Below, in pieces: positions 19,506 to 63,904 of a stretch of 64,000 nt of DNA. Position numbers and translations under genes: made by a program. Source of the stretch: a virus. The stretch's first letter is position 1, and every line of letters begins with the position of its first letter. The notes beneath the pieces were generated by a model. The model made no database searches. It was not told the DNA's origin and worked only from the letters and a program-made list of their open reading frames with translations. The DNA lies in the IMG/VR virus record IMGVR_UViG_3300031456_000001, positions 21,080 to 85,079 of that record. One strand, written 5' to 3'.

Positions 19506-19859
19506 ATGAGCGGACCGAAGCCGGTCAAGCTGCTCGCCAAACTGCCGAAAGAGTCCAGGCTCAACGGCCTGGAGTCGGTACACGACCAGCTGGCCAGGTT
19601 CGGCACGGCGACGATCGTCATGACCGTGTCGACGAAGCTGGTCGAGCGGCACGCGGGCGACGTCCTGCAGCCGGTCATGCAGATCGAGCACGTCGAGGGC
19701 CTGCCGGCCGGCGCGCTCGCCAAGGCGGGCGAGCAGCTGATGACGCAGGCCCGCATCGCCCGCCTCGGCGGCGAGGAGGAGGCCCTGCCGCCGGAAGTCG
19801 TCGACTTCGGCCAGCCGGATGACGACAACGACGATCCTGAGCCATACCAGGTTGATTGA
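19506..19859 (+). CDS. Hypothetical protein
   Basis: AGGAG RBS; stop TGA lies inside the next TTGACA. Confidence 0.7.
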   Translation: MSGPKPVKLLAKLPKESRLNGLESVHDQLARFGTATIVMTVSTKLVERHAGDVLQPVMQIEHVEGLPAGALAKAGEQLMTQARIARLGGEEEALPPEVVDFGQPDDDNDDPEPYQVD

Positions 19860-32711: not shown

Positions 32712-33904
32712 CGGCGTTCCCGCAGCGCCGCCTCGATGCGATCGAAGCTCTCCTCGGCCTCTCCCGGGGGAAAGCTCACGGGCAGCGAACGGCACATGCT
32801 GAGCATCCATCGGCGCAGCTTGTCCACGTCGGCCAGCGCGACGGCGGCGCGATCGCTGATGCCGTTGCGCGCCTCGGCGGGGGTGCCCGTGTGCTCGGCG
32901 GCGTTCTGGCCACAGCGCGGGCACAACTCGATCTCGGCGACCCACGGCCGCCCGCAGGTGCGCGCCTCGGCGGGGGTGGTGGGCTGGTCGTCGAGATCAC
33001 TATCGGGGGCGCCGGAGATGATGCTCGCGCCGTAGCCACCGCAGTCGTTCATCGTATCGGTGCCGAACGTGTCGATCACGTCCCGTCGATGCGCCGGAGT
33101 CATCGCGTTCCACTCGGTCCGCGGGATCTCCATGCGCTCGGTCGTCTCGATCATCTGCTCGACGTGCGCTTCGATGATCACCGGCTCGTTGTTCTCGGCG
33201 GGGGTGGTGGGCGGGTACGGGTAGGGCTCTTCGCCCTTGGCGAATTTGGCCAGCTCGGCGCGCAGTCCGGTCGCGTAGGCGTTGTACTCGGGAGTTCCTG
33301 GCGGGAACGTGGGCGCGGCGAGCATGCCATCCGGCTGGCCCCAACCCTGCTCCCCATCGTCCGGCCCGCCCCAGCGGCCATCGACGGCGCGGGCATGGGC
33401 CGCATCACGTTCGATGCGAGCGTCCCGCTCGTTGTATGCCTCGACCAGCGCCTTTGCCCTGTCGCGATCGGCCGTCTCACCGGAGGCGACCAGCTCGAAC
33501 GCCGGCACCGCGGCGGCCATATCCTGATCGCCCGCGGCCTTGACTGCCGCGCAGAGCCTGCGGTGCGTGTCGTTGATGACCTCGGTGCGCCGCGCGTCCA
33601 TGTCCAGCGCCTCGGCATACGCCCGGTCAATCTCACCGCTGCACGCCTCGTCCCACACCTGGGCGGGCGTCGTCGCTACCTGGTGGACGCCGTGACTGCG
33701 CTTCGCCTCACGCAGGATGCCGCGGTCCATCAGGGCGACCACGGTGTTGACGCCGGTGCCGCGCCCGCAATCGCGCACCGGATCGACGTTCCCGTGCTGG
33801 TTCAGCGCACGCACCAGGCGCTGCATCGCGGGGGACAGCTTCACCTCGCGGTCCAGGACGTGGGAGAAGGTGTAGCCACGATCGTCGATCGGGAAGTTCG
33901 GCAT
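32708..33904 (-). CDS. Hypothetical protein
   Basis: 398 aa; driven by a promoter and leader cassette. Confidence 0.75.
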   Translation of the reverse strand: MPNFPIDDRGYTFSHVLDREVKLSPAMQRLVRALNQHGNVDPVRDCGRGTGVNTVVALMDRGILREAKRSHGVHQVATTPAQVWDEACSGEIDRAYAEALDMDARRTEVINDTHRRLCAAVKAAGDQDMAAAVPAFELVASGETADRDRAKALVEAYNERDARIERDAAHARAVDGRWGGPDDGEQGWGQPDGMLAAPTFPPGTPEYNAYATGLRAELAKFAKGEEPYPYPPTTPAENNEPVIIEAHVEQMIETTERMEIPRTEWNAMTPAHRRDVIDTFGTDTMNDCGGYGASIISGAPDSDLDDQPTTPAEARTCGRPWVAEIELCPRCGQNAAEHTGTPAEARNGISDRAAVALADVDKLRRWMLSMCRSLPVSFPPGEAEESFDRIEAALRERR

Positions 33905-51509: not shown

Positions 51510-52580
51510 TTAGTCGGTGATGCGCTCCAGGACGGACGCGGCCTTCTCGTGCGTGAGCTTGAACGCGCGCCGGGTGCGGAACTTCATCGCGTAGTCGTCG
51601 GTGTCGTCCTGCGCGCGGGCGTCGTCGGTCAGGGTTTCCGGGCCGGACCGGTCGCCACGCGCGAGGTGCCGCTTGTTGGCGAAATACAGCAGGTCGTTGC
51701 CGGCCGGGCTGCCCGAGTTGGCCGCCGACGTCTTGCAGCCACGCGACCAGTAGATCGGCGTCTCGAAGAGGCTGTCCGGGGTGGCGTTGCCCGGCATCTT
51801 CGAGCCGCGCTGGAAGATCGGGCGGCCCTGGCCATCGACGCAGAGCCGCAGCGCGCTGCGCCAGCCGGGCGCCGCGATGACGATCATGTCGGCCTGGTTC
51901 CAGTACTTGCCGGTCTCGACGAGCTGGAACAGGTAGGAGAGCTTCTCGTACAGCGACGTCCCGAGCGGGGTCGTCGGCAGCGAGATGAGGTCGTCGTCCC
52001 ACGTGGTGTAGTTGGCGTCCGCGACGTACGAGGTGGCGGAGTTGGTCGTCCGCAGCGCCTTGTAGGCCGAGGTGAACGGCGCGATCGCGGTGCCGTCCTC
52101 GGTCGCGGTAACGCCGAGGCACGCGTTGTCGAACACGTCGGCGTACGAGATGGCCCAGTCGAGGGCCTTCGTACCGAGCACGTCGAGGCGGGTGTTGGCG
52201 TCGGCCAGGTCGTCCTCATCGACGGTCACGCGGGCGATGAACCGCCGGGCGGTAAGGATGACGTCGTCGTTGGTCGAGGTGTCCGACACGTACGTGGTGC
52301 CGGCCTGGACGGTGATGCCCGCCGACCGCGGGATCGACTTCGTCTTCGAGTTCATGATCACCCGTCGCGCCTGCGACTCGATCACGGACTCGGTGAGCAC
52401 CCGCTGAATGACGTTCGAGTCGTACTCGATCGGGATCCAGGTGGTGATGTTCATGTTGGCGCCACCGGCGGCGGCGTAGACCGGCTGACCACCGCGGGTG
52501 AAGCCGATGACGGTGCCGGAGACGGCCTCGTCGCGGTCGGTGGTGACGTCCCACTGCACGCGGGAGCTGGTGCGCTGCAT
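51510..52580 (-). CDS. Major capsid protein (HK97 fold)
   Basis: WIPIEY..NVI, IPR, LR..VDGQGRPIF, LFETPI; follows the scaffold. Confidence 0.9.
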   Translation of the reverse strand: MQRTSSRVQWDVTTDRDEAVSGTVIGFTRGGQPVYAAAGGANMNITTWIPIEYDSNVIQRVLTESVIESQARRVIMNSKTKSIPRSAGITVQAGTTYVSDTSTNDDVILTARRFIARVTVDEDDLADANTRLDVLGTKALDWAISYADVFDNACLGVTATEDGTAIAPFTSAYKALRTTNSATSYVADANYTTWDDDLISLPTTPLGTSLYEKLSYLFQLVETGKYWNQADMIVIAAPGWRSALRLCVDGQGRPIFQRGSKMPGNATPDSLFETPIYWSRGCKTSAANSGSPAGNDLLYFANKRHLARGDRSGPETLTDDARAQDDTDDYAMKFRTRRAFKLTHEKAASVLERITD

Positions 52581-53218: not shown

Positions 53219-54244
53219 CTACACCCGACCGCGTTCGAACATCTGTGCGGCGATCTTCTCTTCCCAGGTCTTCGGTGCGGCCTGCTGCCGGCCGCGGCCG
53301 CCGCCATCGACGTCGCGGGCGCCCCGGCTGGCCCGGGTTGCGGTCCGGGCCGTGGCGGCCGTCCGGCGTCGGGCCGGCTTGCGCTCCTCGAACAGGTTCG
53401 GGAAGTCCTCCTGGAGCTGCGTGATGGCCTCTTCGATGCCGAGCAGCTCGAAGCTGTCGCCGTCGAGGTCCAGGTCCAGCTCGTCGGGGTCGATGGTGCG
53501 CATGATCCGGCGCAGCTGCCGGTCGTCGCCGGTGAACCCGGCGTCGCGCAGGGCGAGGCGGGCGGCGTGCTCGGCGAGGATCGGCATCAGCTCTTCGCGG
53601 GCTTTCTGCTCGCCGCGGCGTTCCGCGGTCAGCACCGCGCGGGCGTGTTCCTTGTCCCGCTGCCGGCGGCTGCGTTCGTCGTCGCCGCGGCGCGGGTCGT
53701 CCTCGTACTGGTCGACGTCGGCGGTGTCGTCGCGCGGGTCGACGACGTCGTCGCCGTACGGGTGTCCGGTTTCGGGGTCGATGCCGCGTTCGGTGAGCCA
53801 GGTGCCGAAGTCGTCGATGCCGAGCTTGTCGGCGTACTTGCCGATGCGGCGGCGTTTGCCGGCTTCGGCGTTGGCCCGCTTCAGCGAGCCGGTGACCCGG
53901 TCCCAGGTGGCCCGGTCCGGCGGGGTCCAGTCGGCGTCTTCCCCGTCCTCGTCCTCGCCGTCGTCCTGCTGCTGGCGCCCCCGGCGGGCCTTCCGCGCGG
54001 CCGGCTCGTCCTCGTCGTCGTCATCGTCGTCCGCGTCGTCGTCGGCGTCCCGACCCGAATCGTCGTCGTCGTCGAACTCGGGATCGTCGCCTTCGTCGTC
54101 ACCGACCGCGAATTCGATTCTGCTGCCGCCGGAGCGGCCGCCCTGGGCGCTGTAGACGGGCACGCCGAGCACCGTGTAGGCGATCGGGGTGTAGGGCGAG
54201 GCAGAAGCCGCCCGTAGCCCAGGCTTGACTGCAGTGGTGGTCAT
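53219..54244 (-). CDS. Capsid scaffolding protein
   Basis: Acidic tract, helical core, ANAEA..RR, FPNLFE, DGG; upstream of the capsid gene. Confidence 0.8.
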   Translation of the reverse strand: MTTTAVKPGLRAASASPYTPIAYTVLGVPVYSAQGGRSGGSRIEFAVGDDEGDDPEFDDDDDSGRDADDDADDDDDDEDEPAARKARRGRQQQDDGEDEDGEDADWTPPDRATWDRVTGSLKRANAEAGKRRRIGKYADKLGIDDFGTWLTERGIDPETGHPYGDDVVDPRDDTADVDQYEDDPRRGDDERSRRQRDKEHARAVLTAERRGEQKAREELMPILAEHAARLALRDAGFTGDDRQLRRIMRTIDPDELDLDLDGDSFELLGIEEAITQLQEDFPNLFEERKPARRRTAATARTATRASRGARDVDGGGRGRQQAAPKTWEEKIAAQMFERGRV

Positions 54245-54370: not shown

Positions 54371-54721
54371 TCAGGTGTTGTCGCGCTCGTCGGCGAATTC
54401 GATGCCGTCGTTGGTGTCGGGGTTGTCCCACCGGTCCGCGGTGTCCTGCGGGGCGGGCTGCTCGTCGGCGTCGTCGCCGTACAGCGGTTCGGCGGTGCAG
54501 GTCCGGACGTGCTCGGCGGCCTGCTCGGCCTGTTCCGGCGTGAACTCCTCGCCGCACCGGTCGCACACCGCGTCTTCGCTTTCGGCGTCTTCCGGGTCCT
54601 CGTCGTAGTCATAGTCATCAAAGTCGTCGGGGTCCGGACCCTCGTCGTACTGGGGGTAGTCCCAGCCGGTCGGCTCGCCGGCCTCGTTCCGGTAGATCTG
54701 TGCGCCAACTCCGGGGAACAT
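54371..54721 (-). CDS. Acidic hypothetical protein with Zn-finger-like motif
   Basis: CDRC...H...C; AAGGAGGCCCCAGATG leader. Confidence 0.7.
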   Translation of the reverse strand: MFPGVGAQIYRNEAGEPTGWDYPQYDEGPDPDDFDDYDYDEDPEDAESEDAVCDRCGEEFTPEQAEQAAEHVRTCTAEPLYGDDADEQPAPQDTADRWDNPDTNDGIEFADERDNT

Positions 54722-54748
54722 CTGGGGCCTCCTTCGTGGTGGGATTGG

Positions 54749-55126
54749 TCAGTCGCCGATCGAGTACCAGTCGTTGCGATCGCAGCCGGGCGCCGAACAG
54801 GTGATGCGGTCGCCGTACGCCTCCTGCGTGGTGACCACCGTGTCGTAGCCCTTGCACTTGGGGCAGCGCGACACCGCGTACAGGTCAGGCTGACCACCAT
54901 GGTTTGGTGTGCCGTCGGCATGCCGCGCAACGGTGAACGCATCCTCGCCGAGTTCCCACGGGCCGGGCCGGTACGCCGGGTCGGTGATGCGGTGGTCCCA
55001 GGCGGCCTTCACGGTGACGATCGGCTTGCGGCACGTGCTGCACAGGTGACCGGCATCCACGTCGGCGAGAACGGCCAGAACGACCTCGCCGTCGCGGTGC
55101 CAGATAGTGGCAGTGTCGATGGGCAT
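54749..55126 (-). CDS. Hypothetical Cys-rich protein
   Basis: CSTC, CPKC; first gene after a promoter cassette. Confidence 0.7.
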   Translation of the reverse strand: MPIDTATIWHRDGEVVLAVLADVDAGHLCSTCRKPIVTVKAAWDHRITDPAYRPGPWELGEDAFTVARHADGTPNHGGQPDLYAVSRCPKCKGYDTVVTTQEAYGDRITCSAPGCDRNDWYSIGD

Positions 55127-55186
55127 CTGGGGCCTCCTCGTTAGTGGAGACCCCAGGCTAGCAAACTGTCACGCGACGTGTCAACT
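55122..55186 (-). promoter_or_regulatory. Promoter, leader and RBS cassette (direct repeat of 33900-33964)
   Basis: TTGACA-N18-TAGCCT; upstream stop TGA lies inside TTGACA. Confidence 0.88.
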
Positions 55187-55597
55187 TCCGGGGTTGACGA
55201 GGTCGGGGTGGGCCATGTTGGCCTTGCGACTTCCGGTGTCGCCCTCGATGGCCTTGGAGTCGAGGTAGCGCCGCCGCAGCGCCTCCAAGAGGCGTTTGAT
55301 GGTCTGCGGCTTCGACGCGCCGGCCTCGACGGTGACCTTGTTGTCCCGGGCGACGGCCCGCAGCGCGGGCGCGCTGTAGCCCTTGAGGATGTTCTCGGCG
55401 GCGAAGTCGGACGGGGCGTTGCGCAGGCTGTAGGCCAGGTCCGTCTCGCCTTCGATGCGGGGGCGGAGCCGGGCGCGGTCGGCGTCGGTGGCGCCGACGG
55501 GAATGGGCGTCGGGGTGGGCGCCCGCAGGGCGGCGGGCGCAGCCGCGCGGACGGCCGGAGCCGCCGTCTCGGTGCGCCCGCCCTGCGGGCTTACGCT
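55181..55597 (-). CDS. Segment C of the frameshifted polyprotein
   Basis: Reached by a -1 shift at G GGA AAA (55603-55597); HeH-like YSAPALRAVARDNKV...KPQTIKRLL. Confidence 0.65.
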   Translation of the reverse strand, partial: SVSPQGGRTETAAPAVRAAAPAALRAPTPTPIPVGATDADRARLRPRIEGETDLAYSLRNAPSDFAAENILKGYSAPALRAVARDNKVTVEAGASKPQTIKRLLEALRRRYLDSKAIEGDTGSRKANMAHPDLVNPGS

Positions 55598-58500
55598 TTT
55601 CCCAGGCTGGCCAGCCTGGCGACCGCGGCGACCGCGGCGGTGGCGCGGGCCGCGCGCTGCGGCCGCCCCTCCAACCTCCTGAGGCCGTCGAAGGTCCGTA
55701 GGCGCTGCTCGGCGGTGAACTTGGCCCAATCCTCGGCAGTCACCCGCTCGGCGCCGTTGAGTAGCCCGAACGGGCTGGAGTCGGTGCCGCGGGACGCGGC
55801 GATGAGGTCCACCCCGGCGCGGCTGACGCCGAGCCTGTCGGCCGTGTGGCGTTCGGCGGTGTTGTGGATGCCCTTGCGGATCTCGTCGAGGGGGGTGCGG
55901 GTCGGTGCGAGCATGCCGAGGTGCGCGGCGACCTTGCGCAGTTCGGGTGCATTCATGTCGGCGGCGAGCCGGTCGGCCTCGTCGGGGGTGACGGTGCGCA
56001 GCTTCGCCACGAACTCTTCCGGGGTGGCCTTCGGTGCCGCGCTGTGCACCTGCGGTCCGGCGGCTTGCTCGGCGCCGACCTTGCGCAGGATCTTCTCGTT
56101 AGGTCGGGTGGCGTGCATGACGCCCCGGCCGCCGGTCGGCGTGGTGTAGGCGACCTTGACGTTTTTGACGCCGACCTCCGTGACGATGCCCCGCCGATAG
56201 CGGCTGAACGTGTCGACCATGACCACGTCGCCGGCTTTGACCGGCTGGTCGGGTGCGGCGGCGAAGCCGAGCTGCCGGGCGTCGTCGTCGCCCCCGGCGA
56301 CGGCCATCAGCTTCAGGGCCTCCTGGTAGGTGACGTCCCGGCCGAGCTTGGAGGTTTCGTGCCGGGCGGCGATCTCGATCTTGGCGGTGGCGCCGGTGCG
56401 GCCGCCGCCTTTCGGGGTGGGTGCGGTGTCGGCGACGTGCCGGAGACCTTCGCCGGTGATGTAGCTGCCGTTGACCCGCTCGCCGTCCTGGGTGGCCTCG
56501 GCCAGGTAGTTGCCCCGGATCAGCTCGCCGGTGATGTGGCCGGACTCGTAGGGGTTTTTGGTGCCCAGCTCCTTGGCGATGGCGTTGGCGTCCCTGGACC
56601 ATTTGATGGCGGCGTTGACCTCGGTCTTGTCGGGGTCATCGACGGTGTATCCGGGCTGGGGACCGAGGCGTTCGTGGATGACGGCGGCGGTGCGGAGCAG
56701 GCTGTCACGGCCGTGGGACAGCTCGGAGCGGGGCCGGGTGTCGCCGCCGGGCTTCTTCGTCACGTTCGCCTCCGTGGCGGAGGTCGGTGCGACTCGGTCG
56801 GCCTTGATGTGGGTGGTGACCGTGCTGGCACCCTTCCCGGCGGTCCCGTCGGCGCGCAGCTTGGTGCCGCGCACCATGACGTTGCCGTTGCGGTCCGGTT
56901 CGCCCAGCACTTCGACGTCGGCCAGCTGGTAGGGCTGCTTGTACGTCAGGTCGGCCCCGGCCGGGACCGTGATGGTCGAGCCGTTCTGGATGCGGTTCAC
57001 GTTCGCCTCCGTGGTGGGTGCGTTGCTCACCCCACCAGTATGCGAACTGTCACGCCGTGTGTCAAGTTGGCCGCGGCGTTCCGTCTCCAGCTTCGCCAGG
57101 CTCGCCTCGTGGCGCGCCCGGATGCCCGGCGTCAGGTCCGGCTTCGCGAGCGCGTCGCGGTGCTGCCGGATCTCCCGGTCGAGGGCCTCGCGGTCCAGTT
57201 CGGCGACCGTCTTGTTGCGGCCCTCGTAGCGATGGAACATGCGTCCGCTGATGCGGCGCGCATCGAGGCTGCCGCCGGTGCTGGCCGCCGTCTCGCCGTT
57301 GGTGAGGACGTCGGCGGCGTGGGCGATGGTGTCGGCCCAGCCCTCCAGGCGCGTCTCGCCGCTACCGTTCTCCGAGTGCACGGCATAGACCTGCTCGCCG
57401 TCGCGTACGGTCGAGGTGACCCACCCGGCGGTCTGGCCGTTGCGGTCGGTGACCTTGAACTCTCCGAACGGGTTGTCGGGGGTGTGCCGGATGCGGCCCA
57501 CCTTGAGGTCGGACCGCTGCCCGGACGGCCCGGCCATGATCTTGCGGTACAGGTCGGCGTGGTCCATCCGGCCGTCGGCGATGGCCCGGATCTTGGCGCC
57601 ATTGTCCTTCGGGTCCTTCGACTCCTGCAGGTCACTGACACGCTTCTCGGTGGCTGCGGTGCGGGCCTTGGCCAGGTTGGCGGTGCGCTTCTCCGCGGTG
57701 GCCGCACTGACCACCGGTGGGGCAGCGCCACTCCCCCGCTGCCTGCTGTTGATCCGGGCTCGCATGGCGTCCCAGCCGACGCCGTTGATCGTGAAGTCGG
57801 GGTTGCGGGTCTCGCCCCGGTCGACAGCGGCGAGCGCATCCGCGTACCGCCCGTCCTTCATTGCCAGGCGCGCCTGCTCGGCCACGTCGGCAGAGGCAGC
57901 CTTGCGGGCGGCCTCCTTCGCCCTACCGCCGTCTTTCGGCCCGTCGAGTACCCGGGGGTTGGCGTCGATGTGGGCGCGCACCGCGTCTTGGACGGTACTG
58001 GTGCCGTACTTCTTCTCCAGGGCCTGCAGGTGCCCTTCCGTGACGTACCGGGCGGTGTCGTCACGGCTGAGGTTGAGTGCGCCGCCGTGGTTGGCTGCGG
58101 CGTAGTCCTCGGTGGCCGCCTGGATGCGCGCCCGGTCGAGGGGCGCGATGGCGTCGCCCTTGCCCGGGGCGGCGGCGAGCGCGCCGCGCTTCGCGGCCGG
58201 GTTGATCCGGGTGCGGACGGGAGCGGCGGGCGCCTTCGCAGCCTCCGGCTTGACGACGTCGTGCGGCTGGATCCGGGTCTCGATCGTCCGGCCGTTCTGA
58301 TCGACCCGGCTCACGTGCAGCGTCTCACCCGGTCCGGCGTCGCGGGTCACCGTGTACTCGCGCGGCTTCGCGCCGGGCGGCAGGGCGAAGGTGGACAGCA
58401 CCTTGTCGCCCTTCTTGTGGCCGACCTCCCCGGCGAACACCTCCTCGTGCAGGGCGTGCATGTCGGCGGCGATCTTGGCCAGACCGGACGGCCCGGATGC

Positions 58501-59403
58501 CGGCGCGGGCACCTTGGCGGGCTTGGCCGACTCGCCGCGCAGCCGGGCGGCGGCCCGCTCCGCGAGCGCGTTGCCGTCGCGACGCCCCAAGATGGTCAGC
58601 TCGGTCGCCTGCTCTTCGCTGATGCCGCCGCCGGAGCGCACCTCGAAGTCGTAGTTCTTTGCGCCGGGGTCTCCGTCACCGGCCGCTGCGCGGACCGCGT
58701 TCCAGACGGCGACCTTCTCGGCCACCTTCGCATCGGCCTTGTCGGCACCCTCCGTGGTGGCCATGCTCGGCAGACTGTCGTGCAGCTTCTGCACTTCGCT
58801 GCGGGTGCGCGGGGTAAGGTCGGTGCGGGCCAGCTCGCCGCGCAGTACCTCGCCACCACGGCGATTGTTCTCAGCGGCAGCCCGCACCCGGGCGGCATTT
58901 TTCGCATCGAAGATGATCGACTCGGCAAGGGCGCGCTGGCCGTCCGGCAGTTTCTTAACAGCGGTGTCGCCGGGGATGCCGTTGGCCTTCTTCAACGCCT
59001 TGACGTGGGCTTTCGCAGCCTCTTCGACATCGATCCGACCCAGCGCCTGCGCCGCCGCGCTGGCCCGCTTCCGGTGGGCGAGGAAGTCGTCTTTCAGGGC
59101 CTGGTTCTCGTCCCGGAACACCTGGACCTTGCGGGCGGCGGCATCGATACGCCACGTCTCCCAGGCGGGAGTGTTCTCGAACTCTTTGAGCGCCTGCCGC
59201 CATTCCTTCTTGCGTTCGACGTCGAGCAGGTTGGTACCGCCGTAGCCGTTGATCTCGTAGTCGACACCCTGGGCGAACTGGGTTTTACGGTCGCCGCTCC
59301 AGCGGTTCGGGTCGCTCATGTCGACGCCGATAACGGCGCGGCCTTCGCTGGCCTGCGTAGTGCGCTTCGTCTCGACCGGTATCCGGCCGCGCATGGGGGG
59401 CAT
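55591..59403 (-). CDS. Large mosaic protein, segment B (putative internal virion / polyvalent protein)
   Basis: 1270-aa ORF between portal and scaffold; the frame is open upstream to the slippery site at 59469. Confidence 0.8.
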   Translation of the reverse strand: MPPMRGRIPVETKRTTQASEGRAVIGVDMSDPNRWSGDRKTQFAQGVDYEINGYGGTNLLDVERKKEWRQALKEFENTPAWETWRIDAAARKVQVFRDENQALKDDFLAHRKRASAAAQALGRIDVEEAAKAHVKALKKANGIPGDTAVKKLPDGQRALAESIIFDAKNAARVRAAAENNRRGGEVLRGELARTDLTPRTRSEVQKLHDSLPSMATTEGADKADAKVAEKVAVWNAVRAAAGDGDPGAKNYDFEVRSGGGISEEQATELTILGRRDGNALAERAAARLRGESAKPAKVPAPASGPSGLAKIAADMHALHEEVFAGEVGHKKGDKVLSTFALPPGAKPREYTVTRDAGPGETLHVSRVDQNGRTIETRIQPHDVVKPEAAKAPAAPVRTRINPAAKRGALAAAPGKGDAIAPLDRARIQAATEDYAAANHGGALNLSRDDTARYVTEGHLQALEKKYGTSTVQDAVRAHIDANPRVLDGPKDGGRAKEAARKAASADVAEQARLAMKDGRYADALAAVDRGETRNPDFTINGVGWDAMRARINSRQRGSGAAPPVVSAATAEKRTANLAKARTAATEKRVSDLQESKDPKDNGAKIRAIADGRMDHADLYRKIMAGPSGQRSDLKVGRIRHTPDNPFGEFKVTDRNGQTAGWVTSTVRDGEQVYAVHSENGSGETRLEGWADTIAHAADVLTNGETAASTGGSLDARRISGRMFHRYEGRNKTVAELDREALDREIRQHRDALAKPDLTPGIRARHEASLAKLETERRGQLDTRRDSSHTGGVSNAPTTEANVNRIQNGSTITVPAGADLTYKQPYQLADVEVLGEPDRNGNVMVRGTKLRADGTAGKGASTVTTHIKADRVAPTSATEANVTKKPGGDTRPRSELSHGRDSLLRTAAVIHERLGPQPGYTVDDPDKTEVNAAIKWSRDANAIAKELGTKNPYESGHITGELIRGNYLAEATQDGERVNGSYITGEGLRHVADTAPTPKGGGRTGATAKIEIAARHETSKLGRDVTYQEALKLMAVAGGDDDARQLGFAAAPDQPVKAGDVVMVDTFSRYRRGIVTEVGVKNVKVAYTTPTGGRGVMHATRPNEKILRKVGAEQAAGPQVHSAAPKATPEEFVAKLRTVTPDEADRLAADMNAPELRKVAAHLGMLAPTRTPLDEIRKGIHNTAERHTADRLGVSRAGVDLIAASRGTDSSPFGLLNGAERVTAEDWAKFTAEQRLRTFDGLRRLEGRPQRAARATAAVAAVARLASLGKA
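57037..57065 (-). promoter_or_regulatory. Intragenic promoter cassette
   Basis: TTGACA-CACGGCGTGACAGTTCG-CATACT, 6 nt, then in-frame GTG at 57030. Confidence 0.7.
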
Positions 59404-59409
59404 GCCACC

Positions 59410-59438
59410 AGCCTGACCGCTGTCACGCGACGTGTCAA
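59410..59438 (-). promoter_or_regulatory. Promoter cassette before the ATG at 59403
   Basis: TTGACA-CGTCGCGTGACAGCGGT-CAGGCT, 6 nt, then ATG. Confidence 0.7.
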
Positions 59439-59456
59439 CATGCCCGCCCTGCGGGC

Positions 59457-60782
59457 CTACGCTTTTGGGCCTGCCCCCTTCGCGAACTCGAACCGGTCCA
59501 GATTGCCGCTACGACCCTCGGCGCTGAGCTGCTCATGGCCGTGGATCTTCGTCAAGCCCGCCATCTTGCGGTCGTTGGCGATCAGCGCATCGATCAGCTC
59601 GGCCTTCGACTTGCCCTTCGTGGAGACGCTGCGGCGGCCGTATTTCTGCAGCCACTCCAGATCCTGGGCCTCGTAGTAGGACCGCATTCCGGCCTCGTCG
59701 AAGTTGGCGATCTCCGCCGCATATCCGATCTCCGGTGCCGGCGCCGTCTTCGCGACGGCCCGCTCCGCGGCGGCCGCGGCCACCGGGGACACCTGCGGCC
59801 TCGCCGGGCCGGTTTCGTCGCGCTGGCCGACACCCTTCGGGTTCAGCCGCATCTTGCGGGCCTCGTCTTTGGCCTTCAGTGCGTCGGCGATCTGCGCGTT
59901 GGACTTGCCCCGCCCGGAGATGCCGGCGATCCGGGCCAGCGCGAGCAGCGTGGTGCGGTCCATGTCGGGGTAAGCGGTAGCGCCGTTTTTGCTGTCGGGT
60001 ACGGCCTTGATGGCATCGACGACGGCACGGATGTCGACGCCGGGCTTGTCGAGGATGTCGGCGCCGAGCTGGCCGCCCTCGCCGGGCCTGGTGGCCAAGA
60101 GCGCGTCGCGGGGGTCGGTGTAGCCGGCCGAGGCGGCGGACCTGCGCGCGGCGACGGCTTTCGCGGCACCGCCGTAGCGGTTGGCGAAGTCGGCGTCGGA
60201 GACCTTCGGCACGTCCATCGACAGGGGCGCTTCGACGATGCCGCCGCGCTGTTCGGCGGCCATCTGGTCGGCCTTCTTCAACGCCCGGTCGGACAGGCTG
60301 GTGCGGGTCTTGCGGTCGAGCGGCACTGCCACGCCGCCCAGGCCACGCTGTTCGGCGATCCGGTCGGAGACCTGCTGCAGGGCGGGCTTCGGCTCCGCCT
60401 TCCGCGCAGCAACCGCCTTCGACGCCTTGCCGTAACGGCTCTCGATGTCCTTCTCGGACGTCTGCACGTCGAGGTTGACCGCTTTGGCGTTGATCGCCTC
60501 CTGCGCGTCCTGGGCCACCGTCCTGCGGGCACCCGGGGCAGCCTTCTTCGGCGCCGCCGCTTTCGTCGGCGGCGCGGCCTTCTTCGGCGCGCTGAACGAG
60601 CTGAACGGCTGCATACGCTCCTGGCGTTCACCGCCGTGCGTCATCGAGAAGCCCTTGACCCCGGCCTCCTGGGCGGCCTTGAACGCCCGCGCAGCCCACG
60701 CGGGGCTGCCCTTCTTCGCGAACCGACCGTCACTGGCCCGCGGGTGCTGCCACTCGCGGAAGATCCTCTTCGTCGCAGCCAT
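59457..60782 (-). CDS. HPR-motif protein, segment A (441 aa)
   Basis: GGAGAGG RBS; FREWQHPRASDGRF; PKKAAP repeats; ends at C CCA AAA GCG TAG. Confidence 0.8.
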   Translation of the reverse strand: MAATKRIFREWQHPRASDGRFAKKGSPAWAARAFKAAQEAGVKGFSMTHGGERQERMQPFSSFSAPKKAAPPTKAAAPKKAAPGARRTVAQDAQEAINAKAVNLDVQTSEKDIESRYGKASKAVAARKAEPKPALQQVSDRIAEQRGLGGVAVPLDRKTRTSLSDRALKKADQMAAEQRGGIVEAPLSMDVPKVSDADFANRYGGAAKAVAARRSAASAGYTDPRDALLATRPGEGGQLGADILDKPGVDIRAVVDAIKAVPDSKNGATAYPDMDRTTLLALARIAGISGRGKSNAQIADALKAKDEARKMRLNPKGVGQRDETGPARPQVSPVAAAAAERAVAKTAPAPEIGYAAEIANFDEAGMRSYYEAQDLEWLQKYGRRSVSTKGKSKAELIDALIANDRKMAGLTKIHGHEQLSAEGRSGNLDRFEFAKGAGPKA

Positions 60783-60783
60783 G

Positions 60784-61719
60784 TCAGCCTCTCCCCGCCC
60801 GGCGCGCCAGCTGCGCGCTCGCCTGATCCATCCAGCCCTCGACCTGCGTGCCACGCAGCGTACGACGCTTCGGCGCCCGCGCATTCTCCTGCCGGCCACG
60901 GGCCTGCACCCGCTTCATCGCCGCCACAAACACATTCGCCCGCTGCAGGCCCTCATCGTCATGGAGGTCGGCGCGGGCGCCGTACCCGAAGCGCCCCTCC
61001 TCCCAATCCCGCCGGATCATGACGGTCCGGCCCGCGGACGTCGCCGGCCGGACCCGTCGGTACACGCGCTCCGCGTCGTCCGGGCTCGTCCGATACTCGC
61101 CGCGGCGGAAGCCCAGAACGTGCTCTTTCTCCCGCTGCGACCGGCTCTTCGGCTTGCGCAGCTCGCTGATGCCGTGCCCCATGTCGTTCAGGTAGTTCGG
61201 CTCGTGCCGGCTGCCTGGCCGGGCCGGGTTGATCCACAGGCCGCCCGCGTCCGGGTGGGTCGACGGGCTCCAGTAGATGTGTTCACCGTTGATCCGGCCG
61301 GCGCCCTGCGGGTGCTCGCCGACCCGACGGTAACCGAGCCGTGCGGCCAGTGGTCGGTCGTCGGACACGTTCCGCCCGAGATATTCACCGTACTCGTTGT
61401 ATTTGCCGCCCTGGCCGTCGTGGTACATGACGCCGCTGTCGTGCTGCAGGCCGAGGTGGTTCCGGTATGTGTCGAACGCCCCCTCAAGGGCGTTCAGCTC
61501 ATCCTGCTCGGCGTCGGTGCGTTCCGTCCGCCCAGGCAGGCCGGGCACCTTCCACAACTCCAGAGCGCGGCGCGCCGCCTCGGCGTGCCCGGCCGGCGGC
61601 GGCTCACTGCGGCGTCGGGCGATGTCGACGGACACCCGTCCGACCCACGCGTCGACCCCGGCCCGGGTGAACTGGCCTTCACCGTCGCGGGGGTGCAGCT
61701 TCTCGTTCCAGTCACCCAC
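60784..61719 (-). CDS. HPR-motif protein (311 aa)
   Basis: WNEKLHPRDGEGQF at the N-terminus; directly after the portal gene. Confidence 0.75.
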   Translation of the reverse strand: MGDWNEKLHPRDGEGQFTRAGVDAWVGRVSVDIARRRSEPPPAGHAEAARRALELWKVPGLPGRTERTDAEQDELNALEGAFDTYRNHLGLQHDSGVMYHDGQGGKYNEYGEYLGRNVSDDRPLAARLGYRRVGEHPQGAGRINGEHIYWSPSTHPDAGGLWINPARPGSRHEPNYLNDMGHGISELRKPKSRSQREKEHVLGFRRGEYRTSPDDAERVYRRVRPATSAGRTVMIRRDWEEGRFGYGARADLHDDEGLQRANVFVAAMKRVQARGRQENARAPKRRTLRGTQVEGWMDQASAQLARRAGRG

Positions 61720-61720
61720 G

Positions 61721-63904
61721 TCAGCCGCCCTGCGCCGGCCCGGCGGCCTTCACGGACGCTTTGGCAGGTGCGGCCTTCTTCGCCACGGGCCGCTGACCAC
61801 GGGCAGGCGCGCTACCCTGGGCCTTGCGTGCCCGGGTGGTGCCGGTCGCCATTCCGCCGCCACGTCGGGCGCCCGACGTGGCACCACCGGACGGGAGACG
61901 ACCACCCGGGGCGCCAGGCCCGCCAGCACCGAGCATGCCGCCGGGCGGCAGCACCGGCGGCGGGTCGCGGAACTGCGGCGCCGGCAACGGGTCGACCTGG
62001 TCGGCCGGGTCGGTGTCGGTGGTGCCGTCGGCGAGGTTGCCGATGATCCGGGCCACGAACGCCTGCGTCACGTTGTCCGGCACGACACCCGCGGTGACGC
62101 CCGCGGCGAGCGCCTGCACGGCGGTGCCCAGCTGCACCAGCAGGGCGACGCGCTGCTCCAGGGACAGGCCCTCCTGGCGCTTCAGCCAGGCGTCGACCTG
62201 GTCGTCGGGGTAGCCCATCTCGTTGAGCAGCACCTCCGACGGGACGCCCATGTCGCCCTTCGCCTTGAGCACCTGCACGCCGGTGAGGTCGTTGACCGCG
62301 GCGACCGGCATCCACCGGACATCGACGGCGATACCCTCGATGGCGAGCATGCGCAACGCAAGCTCGTAGGCGTCCTGCCATTCCGGGTCGTAGCGGGCCT
62401 GCCGGTCTGCGACCTTGGCGTTGTAGGGGGCGTCGATGGCTCGGACGGCCTCCCCGGACGGGATGTCCCCGGAGGACTTCGTGAATTTGTACTGGGGCAC
62501 GTCGGTCAGTTCGGCCATGGACTTGATGAACCGGTCGAGCGGTGTCATGAACGTCGCCGGGTCGGCCGCCGAGTACTGGCCGGTCAGTTTGCCGTACAGC
62601 TTCCACACGCTGTTCGGGTCGGCGCGCAGCCCGGACGTGCCGCCCAGGTTCTCGGGGTCGTCGTCGTCGTCCTCGGGGTGATCGGGGTCGACGAGGTTCA
62701 TCAGCGGGTCGTCGACCTTCGGGTCGGCGATGATGTACCGCTGCGGGAAGCCCTGGTATTCGATCACCCCGGCGTACGACCAGATCAACTTGTTGATCAT
62801 GGTCTGTGGGCCGTAGGCCGAGGCGTGCTCGGGCAGGCCGCACGGCACGCCGTTGCGGAAGTGGAACCAGGTCAGCCCGAACGGGCTGGGCATGTCGTCC
62901 TTGTCGAGCGGCTCATCGACGTCGCCGAACTCGTCGGCCGCGACGTGGTCGATGTCCTCGGCGTCGGTGTCCTGCATCTGGTGGACGCGGACCCACGAGT
63001 CGGGCCGGGAGGCCAGGGCGCCCGGATTGGTGACCCAGCGTTCGACCCGGCCGGCGCCCTGGGTGATCTGCCCGTCGCCGTCGATGGTCAGCGGCCCCGG
63101 GTAGTACAGGTTGGCCCGGGTGACGACCTTGCGCTCCTGCTCGGGGGCGCCGTCCTCGGCGAACTCGCTCGGCGTCAGCCACGACTTGATCACGTAGGCG
63201 GGCCGGAGCGGGTCTTCGGGGTCGTACACGAAGGCGACGTCGTGGGCGTTGTTGACCCGGAAGTCGACGCTGACCACGGTGCCAGCGGCGTCGGTGACCG
63301 GCCACAGGAAGAGGAATGCCTCGCCGTGCCGGGAGGCGTTGTGGTGCAACGTCTTCTCCCACACGTCGAGCCGGTTGTTGCGGCGCAACATCTTGATCGT
63401 CTTCTCGGCGCGCTTGACCGTCTTCGGGTCGGCGCTGGCCTCGCCGTCCTCCTCTTCGTCCTCGGACGTAGTGGGGGCGACCTTGACCGCGGCGATCTGC
63501 AGCCGGTCGGCGACAGCATCGACGGGGATCTTGGCGTAGTTGAAGTCGTGGATGTCGTCTTCGTTGACGCCCTGCTTGGCGAGCACCTTGCGGACCGCGG
63601 ACGAGGCGTAGACCATGCCCAGGTCGCCGTCGTACATGGCATCGGCCTCGGTGGCTTTGGCCCGCTGCTCTTCGAGCACCTTCAGGCCATCGACAAGGTG
63701 CCGGCGGGACTGCTGGTCGCGCTTGGCGCTGTCGGGGTTGGCAAGGCGCTTGATGAAGGGGTCGTTGGCGAACTCGCTGGCGGCGTCGGCGCGCGGCGCG
63801 GTGGCCCCGTTGGCGGGGGTGCCGGCGGCCCGGGTGCCGGTGCCGCGGGGGCTGGTCGGGGCGGTGTTGCTGCGGGGGCGGCGGGGGTTCGCGGTCACGG
63901 TCAC
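61721..63904 (-). CDS. Portal protein (SPP1 gp6-like) with basic terminal extensions
   Basis: YDGD, NYAKIPVDAVADRL, EYQGFPQRYI, SGEA, VRW, LNEMGY. Confidence 0.88.
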   Translation of the reverse strand: MTVTANPRRPRSNTAPTSPRGTGTRAAGTPANGATAPRADAASEFANDPFIKRLANPDSAKRDQQSRRHLVDGLKVLEEQRAKATEADAMYDGDLGMVYASSAVRKVLAKQGVNEDDIHDFNYAKIPVDAVADRLQIAAVKVAPTTSEDEEEDGEASADPKTVKRAEKTIKMLRRNNRLDVWEKTLHHNASRHGEAFLFLWPVTDAAGTVVSVDFRVNNAHDVAFVYDPEDPLRPAYVIKSWLTPSEFAEDGAPEQERKVVTRANLYYPGPLTIDGDGQITQGAGRVERWVTNPGALASRPDSWVRVHQMQDTDAEDIDHVAADEFGDVDEPLDKDDMPSPFGLTWFHFRNGVPCGLPEHASAYGPQTMINKLIWSYAGVIEYQGFPQRYIIADPKVDDPLMNLVDPDHPEDDDDDPENLGGTSGLRADPNSVWKLYGKLTGQYSAADPATFMTPLDRFIKSMAELTDVPQYKFTKSSGDIPSGEAVRAIDAPYNAKVADRQARYDPEWQDAYELALRMLAIEGIAVDVRWMPVAAVNDLTGVQVLKAKGDMGVPSEVLLNEMGYPDDQVDAWLKRQEGLSLEQRVALLVQLGTAVQALAAGVTAGVVPDNVTQAFVARIIGNLADGTTDTDPADQVDPLPAPQFRDPPPVLPPGGMLGAGGPGAPGGRLPSGGATSGARRGGGMATGTTRARKAQGSAPARGQRPVAKKAAPAKASVKAAGPAQGG

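Follow-up and report, generated by a model that had tools for sequence, protein, structure and literature searches.

In phage lambda, nested in-frame head genes of the C/Nu3 type are expressed from an internal ribosome-binding site (RBS) on one mRNA, and tail chaperone genes of phages are subject to programmed -1 frameshifting of the G/GT type. Actinophages carry repeated regulatory motifs, among them the L5 stoperators and the start-associated sequences of cluster K, which are generally located between genes. In Shigella, an intragenic promoter is reported to give rise to a leaderless mRNA and thereby to a shorter in-frame isoform of a regulator (VirF30/VirF21; PMC5101355). Large, shuffled proteins of virions and conjugation systems have been surveyed as polyvalent proteins (Iyer et al. 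2017, PMC5512222); the main text of that survey uses the words "promoter" and "frameshift" zero times each and discusses domain release via proteolytic processing, not via internal promoters or starts. Here, we describe a stretch of 64,000 nucleotides (nt), referred to as the window, from an uncultured, high-GC soil phage (IMG/VR record IMGVR_UViG_3300031456_000001; bases 21080-85079 of an 85,079-bp phage genome contig), in which an open reading frame (ORF) of 1270 amino acids (aa) near the portal gene (55591..59403, minus strand, as are all genes, modules, cassettes and elements whose boundaries are given below) is read straight through a promoter cassette.

In-frame promoter/start cassettes of this type are well supported as conserved junction elements of a family of mosaic, portal-adjacent giant ORFs, and the 1270-aa ORF is itself a mosaic. 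In the reading that we favor, to which we assign a probability of about 0.6, this ORF is one of a family of giant mosaic ORFs that lie next to portal genes and are composed of expression-ready modules, and it would give rise to nested products. Many module junctions consist of a compact DNA cassette that is translated through in its one open frame. One form of the cassette combines a sigma-A-type promoter (TTGACA, 17 nt, NANNNT) with an ATG or GTG 6 nt further on, a leaderless-type start, and in the other form the same promoter is followed by a leader of ~30 nt, GGAGG, and a start codon. The conserved geometry of these cassettes indicates that they probably fire and yield nested products.

Promoter and start units in the 1270-aa ORF

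The internal promoter cassette (57028..57065) consists of a -35 hexamer TTGACA (57065-57060), a 17-nt spacer, a -10 hexamer CATACT (57042-57037), and, after 6 nt, a GTG codon (57030-57028). It is read in the frame of the ORF as LDTRRDSSHTGGV, corresponding to aa 780-792, and sits at a homology boundary. An initial annotation of this DNA had proposed that promoters and start units are embedded in frame in the ORF; the promoter and repeat coordinates that it gave all check out, and the copy embedded at 57065-57037 is a perfect copy of its family. The upstream cassette (59401..59438) has the elements TTGACA (59438-59433), a 17-nt spacer, CAGGCT (59415-59410), 6 nt, and the ATG that opens the ORF (59403-59401), which is a start of leaderless type. 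In the same register, this copy reads VDTSRDSGQAGG-M, and the peptide that it would encode, VDTSRDSGQAGGM, recurs without a difference at aa 285-297 of the giant protein P0002. It precedes the first start codon and is translated only if ribosomes arrive in that frame from the preceding gene. The TGA within TTGACA shuts one frame in every copy of the cassette, and the TGA that overlaps GTG 57030 does the same to another frame of the 57065 copy; therefore, the register shared by the two copies, which had been correctly described, is a precondition of an open frame and not independent evidence.

Both cassettes have hexamers and spacing of the sigma-70/sigma-A type (TTGACA-17-CATACT at 57065 and TTGACA-17-CAGGCT at 59438), and a generic sigma-70 scan of 54500-61500 returned a single promoter-like site, the one at 57065, with 10 of 12 matches (shuffle mean, 0.2). 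With up to 3 mismatches allowed, the core TTGACACNNNGCGTGACAG occurs 13 times in the window compared to 0.60 expected, a number reached in 0 of 100 shuffles, and 22 times across the 85-kb genome. The 57065 and 59438 copies have 0 mismatches to this core, and they are the only two matches in the whole genome to the strict leaderless form (TTGACA-N17-NANNNT-N6-RTG). In composition, the internal cassette stands out from the ORF around it: the GC content at third codon positions (GC3) of its 13 codons is 0.46, whereas the ORF averages 0.90, which places the cassette at rank 4 of 1258 windows. All eight of the lowest-GC3 windows of 23 codons in the ORF are located at 57069-57102.

Downstream of the internal promoter, an 18-bp repeat, CCACGGAGGCGAACGTGA, occurs in exactly two copies (57014-56997 and 56777-56760), where 0.13 copies with up to 3 mismatches would be expected; two copies were reached in none of 100 shuffles. 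Each copy forms an RBS-start unit. In unit 1 (56997..57014), GGAGG (57010-57006) is followed by a 5-nt spacer and GTG 57000-56998 (aa 802), and in unit 2 (56760..56777), GGAGG (56773-56769) is followed by GTG 56763-56761 (aa 881). Across the whole ORF and all three frames, these two GTG codons, both in frame, are the only ATG or GTG codons with GGAG 5 to 14 nt upstream.

The initial annotation had counted GTG 57030 among the in-frame starts as well, a proposal that fits GTG 57000 and GTG 56763, the only candidate starts in the ORF led by a Shine-Dalgarno (SD) sequence, and probably does not apply to GTG 57030. In a related phage contig, L015, the unit from the -10 hexamer to the GTG is identical to that of the window at 40 of 46 nt, including CCACCACGGAGGCGAACGTGA, and heads a different module; it has GGA at the position of GTG 57030. 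In six SD-type cassettes of relatives, the +13 residue is V, V, V, S, V or G, and the SD-led start (TTEAxM/V) is kept in 6/6. As the +13 position is variable and the SD-led start is kept, 57030 is probably the region of transcription start and GTG 57000 the start codon. GTG 57030 was rejected as the main start codon because a GTG there is not conserved in the SD-type relatives.

Cassettes, modules and breakpoints among relatives

A word-index search identified six homologous giant proteins of 981-2109 aa (P0002-P0007), and an exhaustive HMMER search with aa 802-1270 identified nine proteins besides the query. In 11 homologous proteins, there are 17 junction peptides of the form [VL]DTxR. At their 13th residue, which falls on the leaderless start position, 11 peptides have M, five have V and one has S (16/17 M or V). 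In five of them, namely, the S case and four V cases, a TTEAxM/V-type SD start lies 9-10 codons downstream. Residue 9 has an xAx codon in 16/17, the middle base of which is the A of the -10 hexamer. Four additional "DK" matches to the regular expression (P0002 126 and 2091, P0006 1439, and P0009 23) are not among the 17 and were rejected as cassettes, since they do not have a cassette-like look. In the alignments, such peptides are met exactly at module ends: VDTSRVKAQTEGM in P0004, VDTPRDSS...TTEANM in P0007, and VDTRRDKSQNGGVSNAPTTEATM in P0006.

Related DNA was available from an 81.7-kb IMG/VR phage, G001 (= L001/L012), and from contigs L006, L008, L010, L014-L016, and L018-L020, which include near-duplicates (L006/L008/L010 and L016/L019); on our reading, there are eight distinct cassettes. 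In G001, an ORF of 1504 codons lies directly behind the portal gene, with an HPR motif (HPRxxxGxF) at its start, and contains two in-frame cassettes, both of the form TTGACA-17-NANNNT-6-ATG. In G000 and six related loci, the strict pattern TTGACA-N17-NANNNT-N6-RTG was matched in 11 rows, 10 of which are in frame within ORFs that have coding GC3 upstream; the eleventh is the 59438 copy, which lies right behind a candidate frameshift element. A frame-agnostic motif scan of IMG/VR returned 13 matches in 10 loci. All 12 matches in the nine contigs of 69-71% GC are embedded in frame inside giant ORFs, and the thirteenth is in an unrelated contig of 34% GC. The 6-nt gap before the leaderless start is found in 11/11 strict-pattern rows and in 4 further high-GC loci.

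In the eight aligned DNA cassettes, conservation at codon positions 1, 2 and 3 is 0.77, 0.80 and 0.78, and the rare T-ending codons NTT and CGT as well as the last T of the -10 hexamer are invariant. Third codon positions are thus as conserved as first and second positions, which argues for a constraint on the DNA element and not for a selected peptide. This DNA-level conservation in related phages supports the earlier view of the embedded units as genuine promoter/RBS-start cassettes, as far as this can be predicted from sequence. An in-frame TTGACA in L006/L010 (VDKMGRPV) has no -10 hexamer and no start, and was set aside as a chance example. Searches of IMG/VR for related loci with the whole ORF, with P0003, and with P0015 found none, and neither did a search of genome contigs with alignment A2; a scan of metagenome contigs with the same alignment gave three short loci only (L002-L004).

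The mosaic nature of the ORF is evident from BLAST comparisons, in which counterparts of aa 3-296 are located at 531-823 of P0002 and at 414-709 of P0003, those of aa 566-816 at quite different positions in P0002, P0004, P0005, P0007, P0009 and G001, and those of aa 843-1129 in P0006 and others. Module 2 (aa 566-779; 57067..57708) is common to P0002, P0004, P0005, P0007, P0009, G001 and L015, again at differing positions. Module B (aa 802-880, 79 aa; 56764..57000) is flanked by the 18-bp direct repeat, and module C (aa 881-1270; 55594..56763) has homologues in P0006 and P0008-P0012. Stand-alone homologues, which the initial annotation had named as a check for the segments at 57000 and 56763, exist for both and begin at the predicted starts. 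The module B homologue P0015 (78 aa, with its own stop) occurs on 20 contigs, the longest of 66.8 kb, and its alignment starts at its residue 4, equivalent to ORF aa 803. The module C homologue P0011, of 250 aa, is encoded on an 11.6-kb contig, and its N-terminal sequence MTETKPKSKL is aligned to the start of the module. Module C is preceded by a leaderless cassette in P0008, P0009, P0010 and P0012 and by an SD-type cassette in P0006. In its arrangement, the window resembles P0006 with two changes, an insertion of module B and a duplication of the RBS-start unit, which would explain the 18-bp direct repeats around module B.

Cassettes coincide with homology breakpoints, defined as the start or end of a BLAST high-scoring segment pair (HSP), in 25/28 cases, compared to 14.6 +/- 2.6 for random positions in the same proteins (maximum 22; 25 reached in 0/2000 draws). 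P0016 and P0017 were dropped from this test, as was a false regular expression match at P0009 position 23 (LDKARAAK), and HSPs of at least 98% identity were ignored. This result fits the alternative put forward in the initial annotation, that the ORF grew by absorbing promoter-gene cassettes.

Joints are also seen in contigs from soil metagenomes of another study (X2 and X3), which are short and of low depth, so that each single joint is weak evidence. A 324-nt contig from X2, ~97% identical, has 56956-56760, with module B sequence and RBS-start unit 2, joined to 55535-55410 with one base between; on our reading, GTG 56763 is thereby brought into the frame of module D (see below), and module C is skipped. 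A second X2 contig shows 0 differences over 56946-57068 and diverges 3 nt beyond the -35 hexamer, and the match of an X3 contig is confined to 56997-57068, the cassette itself. Soil-metagenome homology stops at 59420/59421, within the 59438 cassette.

P0007 contains an ADP-ribosyltransferase exoenzyme-type domain at residues 1176-1318 (ADPrib_exo_Tox, PF03496, E = 5.6e-9), which fits a role of the giant ORFs as carriers of host-directed cargo. The other 10 homologues and the window ORF yielded no domain of this type and no other known effector or enzyme domain.

Predicted products and competing explanations

If the cassettes act as their layout suggests, upstream transcripts would give the whole 1270-aa protein from ATG 59403, and a minority of the product would be joined by -1 frameshifting to the preceding HPR-tagged protein and to module D. 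The promoter at 57065 would start a transcript near 57030, translation of which from GTG 57000 would produce a B-C protein of 469 aa, and RBS-start unit 2, at GTG 56763, would produce C alone (390 aa). The outcome would be a nested set with a common C-terminus (1270, 469 and 390 aa), each member of which could be extended by frameshifting, and the cassettes would also supply short homology for module exchange between phages. There are no stops between the modules, and internal starts would therefore give nested products with the C-terminus in common (B-C, or C) and not the free untagged single-domain proteins proposed in the initial annotation. Its division into early and late products is not borne out either, as a copy of the same promoter family at 55184 also precedes the scaffold and capsid operon and thus gives no indication of such a split.

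Extension by frameshifting is predicted from a 25-nt element, AAAAGCGTRRGCCCGCAGGGCGGGC, which has two window copies compared to 0.00 expected. Candidate element 1 (59442..59469) comprises C CCA AAA (59469-59463), GCG, the TAG of the HPR gene, and the hairpin GCCCGC-AGG-GCGGGC (59456-59442). Candidate element 2 (55576..55603) comprises G GGA AAA (55603-55597), GCG, the TAA at 55593-55591 that ends the 1270-aa ORF, and an identical hairpin. Both share the design X XXA AAA GCG stop plus the GCCCGCAGGGCGGGC hairpin, with a heptamer of the form X XXY YYZ located 6 nt from the hairpin; the short hairpin alone is no better than shuffles (z = -0.35 and -0.07). The -1 frame of element 1 enters the frame of the 1270-aa ORF and runs KSVGPQGGHVDTSRDSGQAGG into ATG 59403. 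Behind element 2, the -1 frame contains module D (~139 codons; 55181..55600), which ends at the TGA inside the next TTGACA and is homologous to in-frame parts of P0006 (1720-1831), P0007 (1877-1962), P0004 and P0013. The same design is present in L006/L008/L010, L014 and L015, where -1 frames extend over 527-1152 codons without a stop and have a GC3 of 0.69-0.91; in G001 (L012), the -1 frame is open for 69 codons to the locus end and, followed further, runs for ~100 codons to a TAG. Given these candidate elements joining modules, the term polyprotein used in the initial annotation is reasonable, with the frameshifting itself still a prediction.

The hairpin also appears as peptide. P0009, P0012 and P0013 begin with the hairpin-coded SPQGGQ, and in the product of the -1 ORF of L015, the hairpin-coded TVTPQGGP (residues ~715-735) is in frame between modules D and 2, where it looks like a former frameshift site turned into a plain fusion. 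P0009 and P0018, near-identical members of one 90% cluster, differ in the whole N-terminal module right behind the hairpin-coded VSPQGGQ; judged from the two sequences, a module was swapped here recently, at the frameshift element.

Several observations weigh against expression from the internal cassettes. The in-frame -10 hexamers never start with T (CATACT, CAGGCT and others), in contrast to the TAGNCT of the intergenic copies, and by this feature the in-frame cassettes may be weaker promoters; a TAG-type -10 at 17-nt spacing would be a stop codon in the open frame, which makes this a trade-off. The leader hairpin at 57032-57016 is weak (z = -1.82). A search for RNA runs that contain the stretch found none. 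No shorter homologue was present among the 8000 candidates scored in a word-index search with the whole ORF, whereas the exhaustive HMMER search with aa 802-1270 did yield short stand-alone forms. The cassette is dispensable, since junctions without one exist, module 1 being plainly fused in P0002 and P0003 and module 2 in L015. Furthermore, recombination within an in-frame cassette preserves the frame, and repeated in-frame copies are therefore not independent events; frequent recombination could preserve cassettes without selection for internal expression.

Taken to its end, the last argument makes the cassettes recombination linkers or scars, with modules gained as promoter-led cassettes at shared promoter/RBS sequence that is renewed by recombination and has no selected role in expression. 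We regard this as rather unlikely, even though the homology breakpoints at cassette edges, the 18-bp direct repeat on both sides of module B, the P0009/P0018 swap right behind a hairpin-coded peptide, the plain cassette-less fusions, and the fossil-like TPQGG read in frame inside L015 all point in its direction. What it does not account for is the joint retention of the -35 hexamer, the 17-nt spacer, the A and T of the -10 hexamer, the 6-nt gap, and the start in 8/8 aligned copies and in every strict match in giant ORFs, nor the M or V at +13 in 16/17 peptides, as sequence that serves purely for recombination has no need of a start codon at a set distance. This explanation and our favored reading are compatible, and both can be true. 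A regulatory role of a different kind is suggested by the core itself, which is palindrome-like and overlaps the -35 hexamer. At L014:3293, TTGACACG-TCG-CGTGTCAA forms a perfect 8-bp inverted repeat, and several genome copies of the core match both strands, 18 nt apart, which suggests a candidate operator for a dimeric regulator. Together with the 22 copies in 85 kb, these features would suit an operator or roadblock, in which the in-ORF copies mainly bind a phage regulator and silence or gate read-through transcription of the cargo locus, as the stoperators of mycobacteriophage L5 do. We consider this quite improbable, because an operator alone leaves the conserved -10 hexamer and the start codon 6 nt behind it unexplained; no regulator was identified in this analysis.

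Two further explanations, which we judge highly improbable, place the signal in the peptide or in the assembly. The junction peptide is conserved among giant proteins, as a cleavage or linker motif (VDTxRDxxQxGGM) would be, but the third codon positions are conserved like the first and second, the rare T-ending codons are fixed, and the same DNA motif occurs in clearly non-coding positions; a function at the peptide level was rejected on the equal codon-position conservation and the non-coding copies. A chimera assembled at repeated cassettes is conceivable, given that the source metagenome, X1, also holds related phages (many pieces, 85-95% identity). It was rejected because X1 contains every 31-mer sampled from the stretch (share, 1.00), an independent contig (the second X2 contig above) covers the internal cassette without difference, and the fused layout recurs in separate IMG/VR contigs.

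Our favored reading of nested expression from conserved cassettes has a broader version that we offer only tentatively. The locus may be a stop-less cargo cassette system, in which each module carries a translatable promoter, start or frameshift linker and any order of modules makes one frame. Modules would be made both as a head-targeted fusion and as a shorter form from their own promoter, and would be exchanged at the linkers, as in a phage counterpart of integron or polymorphic-toxin cassette exchange that takes place within a single reading frame. Promoter firing, internal initiation, frameshifting, the roles of the modules, and packaging through the HPR tag, which the initial annotation had proposed, are inferences at this stage.

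Locus setting and comparison with known systems

The contig ends overlap by 127 bp, and the assembly is therefore circular; the GC content of the phage genome is ~70%. The 1270-aa ORF, which has a coding GC pattern all along (GC1/2/3 = 0.70/0.52/0.90), and two HPR-motif genes fill the interval from the portal gene (61721-63904) to the scaffold gene (53219-54244), followed by the major capsid gene (51510-52580), which confirms the portal-adjacent position in the head module. Single-sequence and profile searches with the 1270-aa ORF gave no Pfam, PHROG, NCBIfam or PDB match, and a Pfam search with the modules returned sub-threshold noise only, even at E up to 1. There was also no match to this ORF in 50,697 phage records by megablast and tblastn.

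The HPR-motif genes encode proteins of 311 aa (61719-60784), with the motif near the N-terminus, and 441 aa (59457..60782, beginning MAATKRIFREWQHPRASDGRF..., with a TAG stop at 59459-59457). The latter is a homologue of the N-terminal module in the giant proteins of relatives, with BLASTP matches to residues 1-118 of P0006, residues 1-43 of P0007, and the N-termini of P0002, P0003, P0008 and P0010. No MuF (SPP1 gp7-like) or other domain from Pfam, PHROG or NCBIfam was found in the HPR genes or the 1270-aa ORF. The HPRxxxGxF motif, which matches no known family, is found in the two consecutive window genes (61719-60784 and 60782-59457) and in almost all giant homologues, in each case among the first ~45 residues. 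Its carriers are the N-termini of P0002, P0003, P0005-P0008 and P0010 and the giant ORFs of L001, L008/L010 and L015.

Other copies of the promoter family precede ordinary genes with a leader, an SD sequence and an ATG (e.g., at 55184, 33962 and 11483), and a further copy is located at 19856. The leaders of intergenic copies fold into strong hairpins (z = -4.4 to -5.6). For example, the cassette that heads the scaffold and capsid operon (55124..55184; ATG 55126) has a hairpin in its 5' untranslated region that pairs with the SD sequence (-23.5 kcal/mol, z = -4.95). The cassettes at 55184-55124 and 33962-33900 share a 72-nt repeat that is 93% identical, and in both the leader hairpin pairs with a GAGGAGG Shine-Dalgarno sequence (-23.5 and -25.7 kcal/mol, respectively, z about -5); these hairpins may regulate translation of the gene at 33904 and of the head operon. 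At the cassette at 31345-31327 of the window, the upstream gene reaches the cassette in its open register and is ended by a spacer TGA (ATT GAC ACG TGA), and by its sequence this is the appearance of an unfused junction.

If the cassettes fire, one giant phage gene would be a stack of overlapping genes, with its products set jointly by read-through, internal promoters with leaderless or SD-led starts, and -1 frameshifting. The annotation of such loci, for which gene callers now give a single hypothetical protein of 1000-2100 aa, would change. The extreme mosaicism of virion cargo proteins would find a concrete mechanism in recombination at regulatory linkers that are short, conserved and translatable. 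The cassette is also a compact natural design (38 nt for a promoter and a start, with one open frame), and could become a tool for making nested products in high-GC actinobacteria. A full-text literature search, which did not extend to subscription journals and supplements and is thus not proof of absence, found no account of translated promoter cassettes in phage ORFs.

Among described systems, the lambda C/Nu3-type genes resemble the predicted expression of this locus in having products that share a C-terminus, internal in-frame starts, and a place in the head-gene region. They differ from it in that they are not known to have a dedicated internal promoter, a repeated cassette or module shuffling. 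The candidate frameshift elements share with lambda G/GT an X XXY YYZ heptamer, a spacer, a stem-loop and a conserved -1 extension; in contrast, the window has two identical 25-nt elements at a head-proximal cargo locus, which would add whole modules of 139 to >1000 codons and which adjoin, or are fused with, promoter cassettes. Like the L5 and cluster K motifs, the cassettes are short, conserved and present in many copies per genome, and they lie at gene starts over the -35 hexamer or the RBS, but the window motifs are translated in frame inside an ORF.

In the terms of the polyvalent-protein survey's main text (PMC5512222), the locus is similar to polyvalent and MuF-type cargo in that very large multi-module proteins lie beside portal and head genes, their module order is shuffled, and a relative (P0007) carries an ADP-ribosyltransferase domain; it differs in that no MuF or other Pfam domain was detected in the proteins of the window. 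By analogy, VirF (PMC5101355) is the nearest mechanistic precedent for an intragenic promoter with a leaderless in-frame isoform. In both cases, a promoter lies inside coding sequence together with a leaderless in-frame start, giving an N-terminally shortened product with the same C-terminus, which is predicted for the window. VirF, a cellular regulator, is an isolated and experimentally proven case, whereas the cassettes described here, predicted from sequence, are repeated and portable, lie at module junctions of giant phage ORFs and at homology breakpoints, and are conserved across phages.

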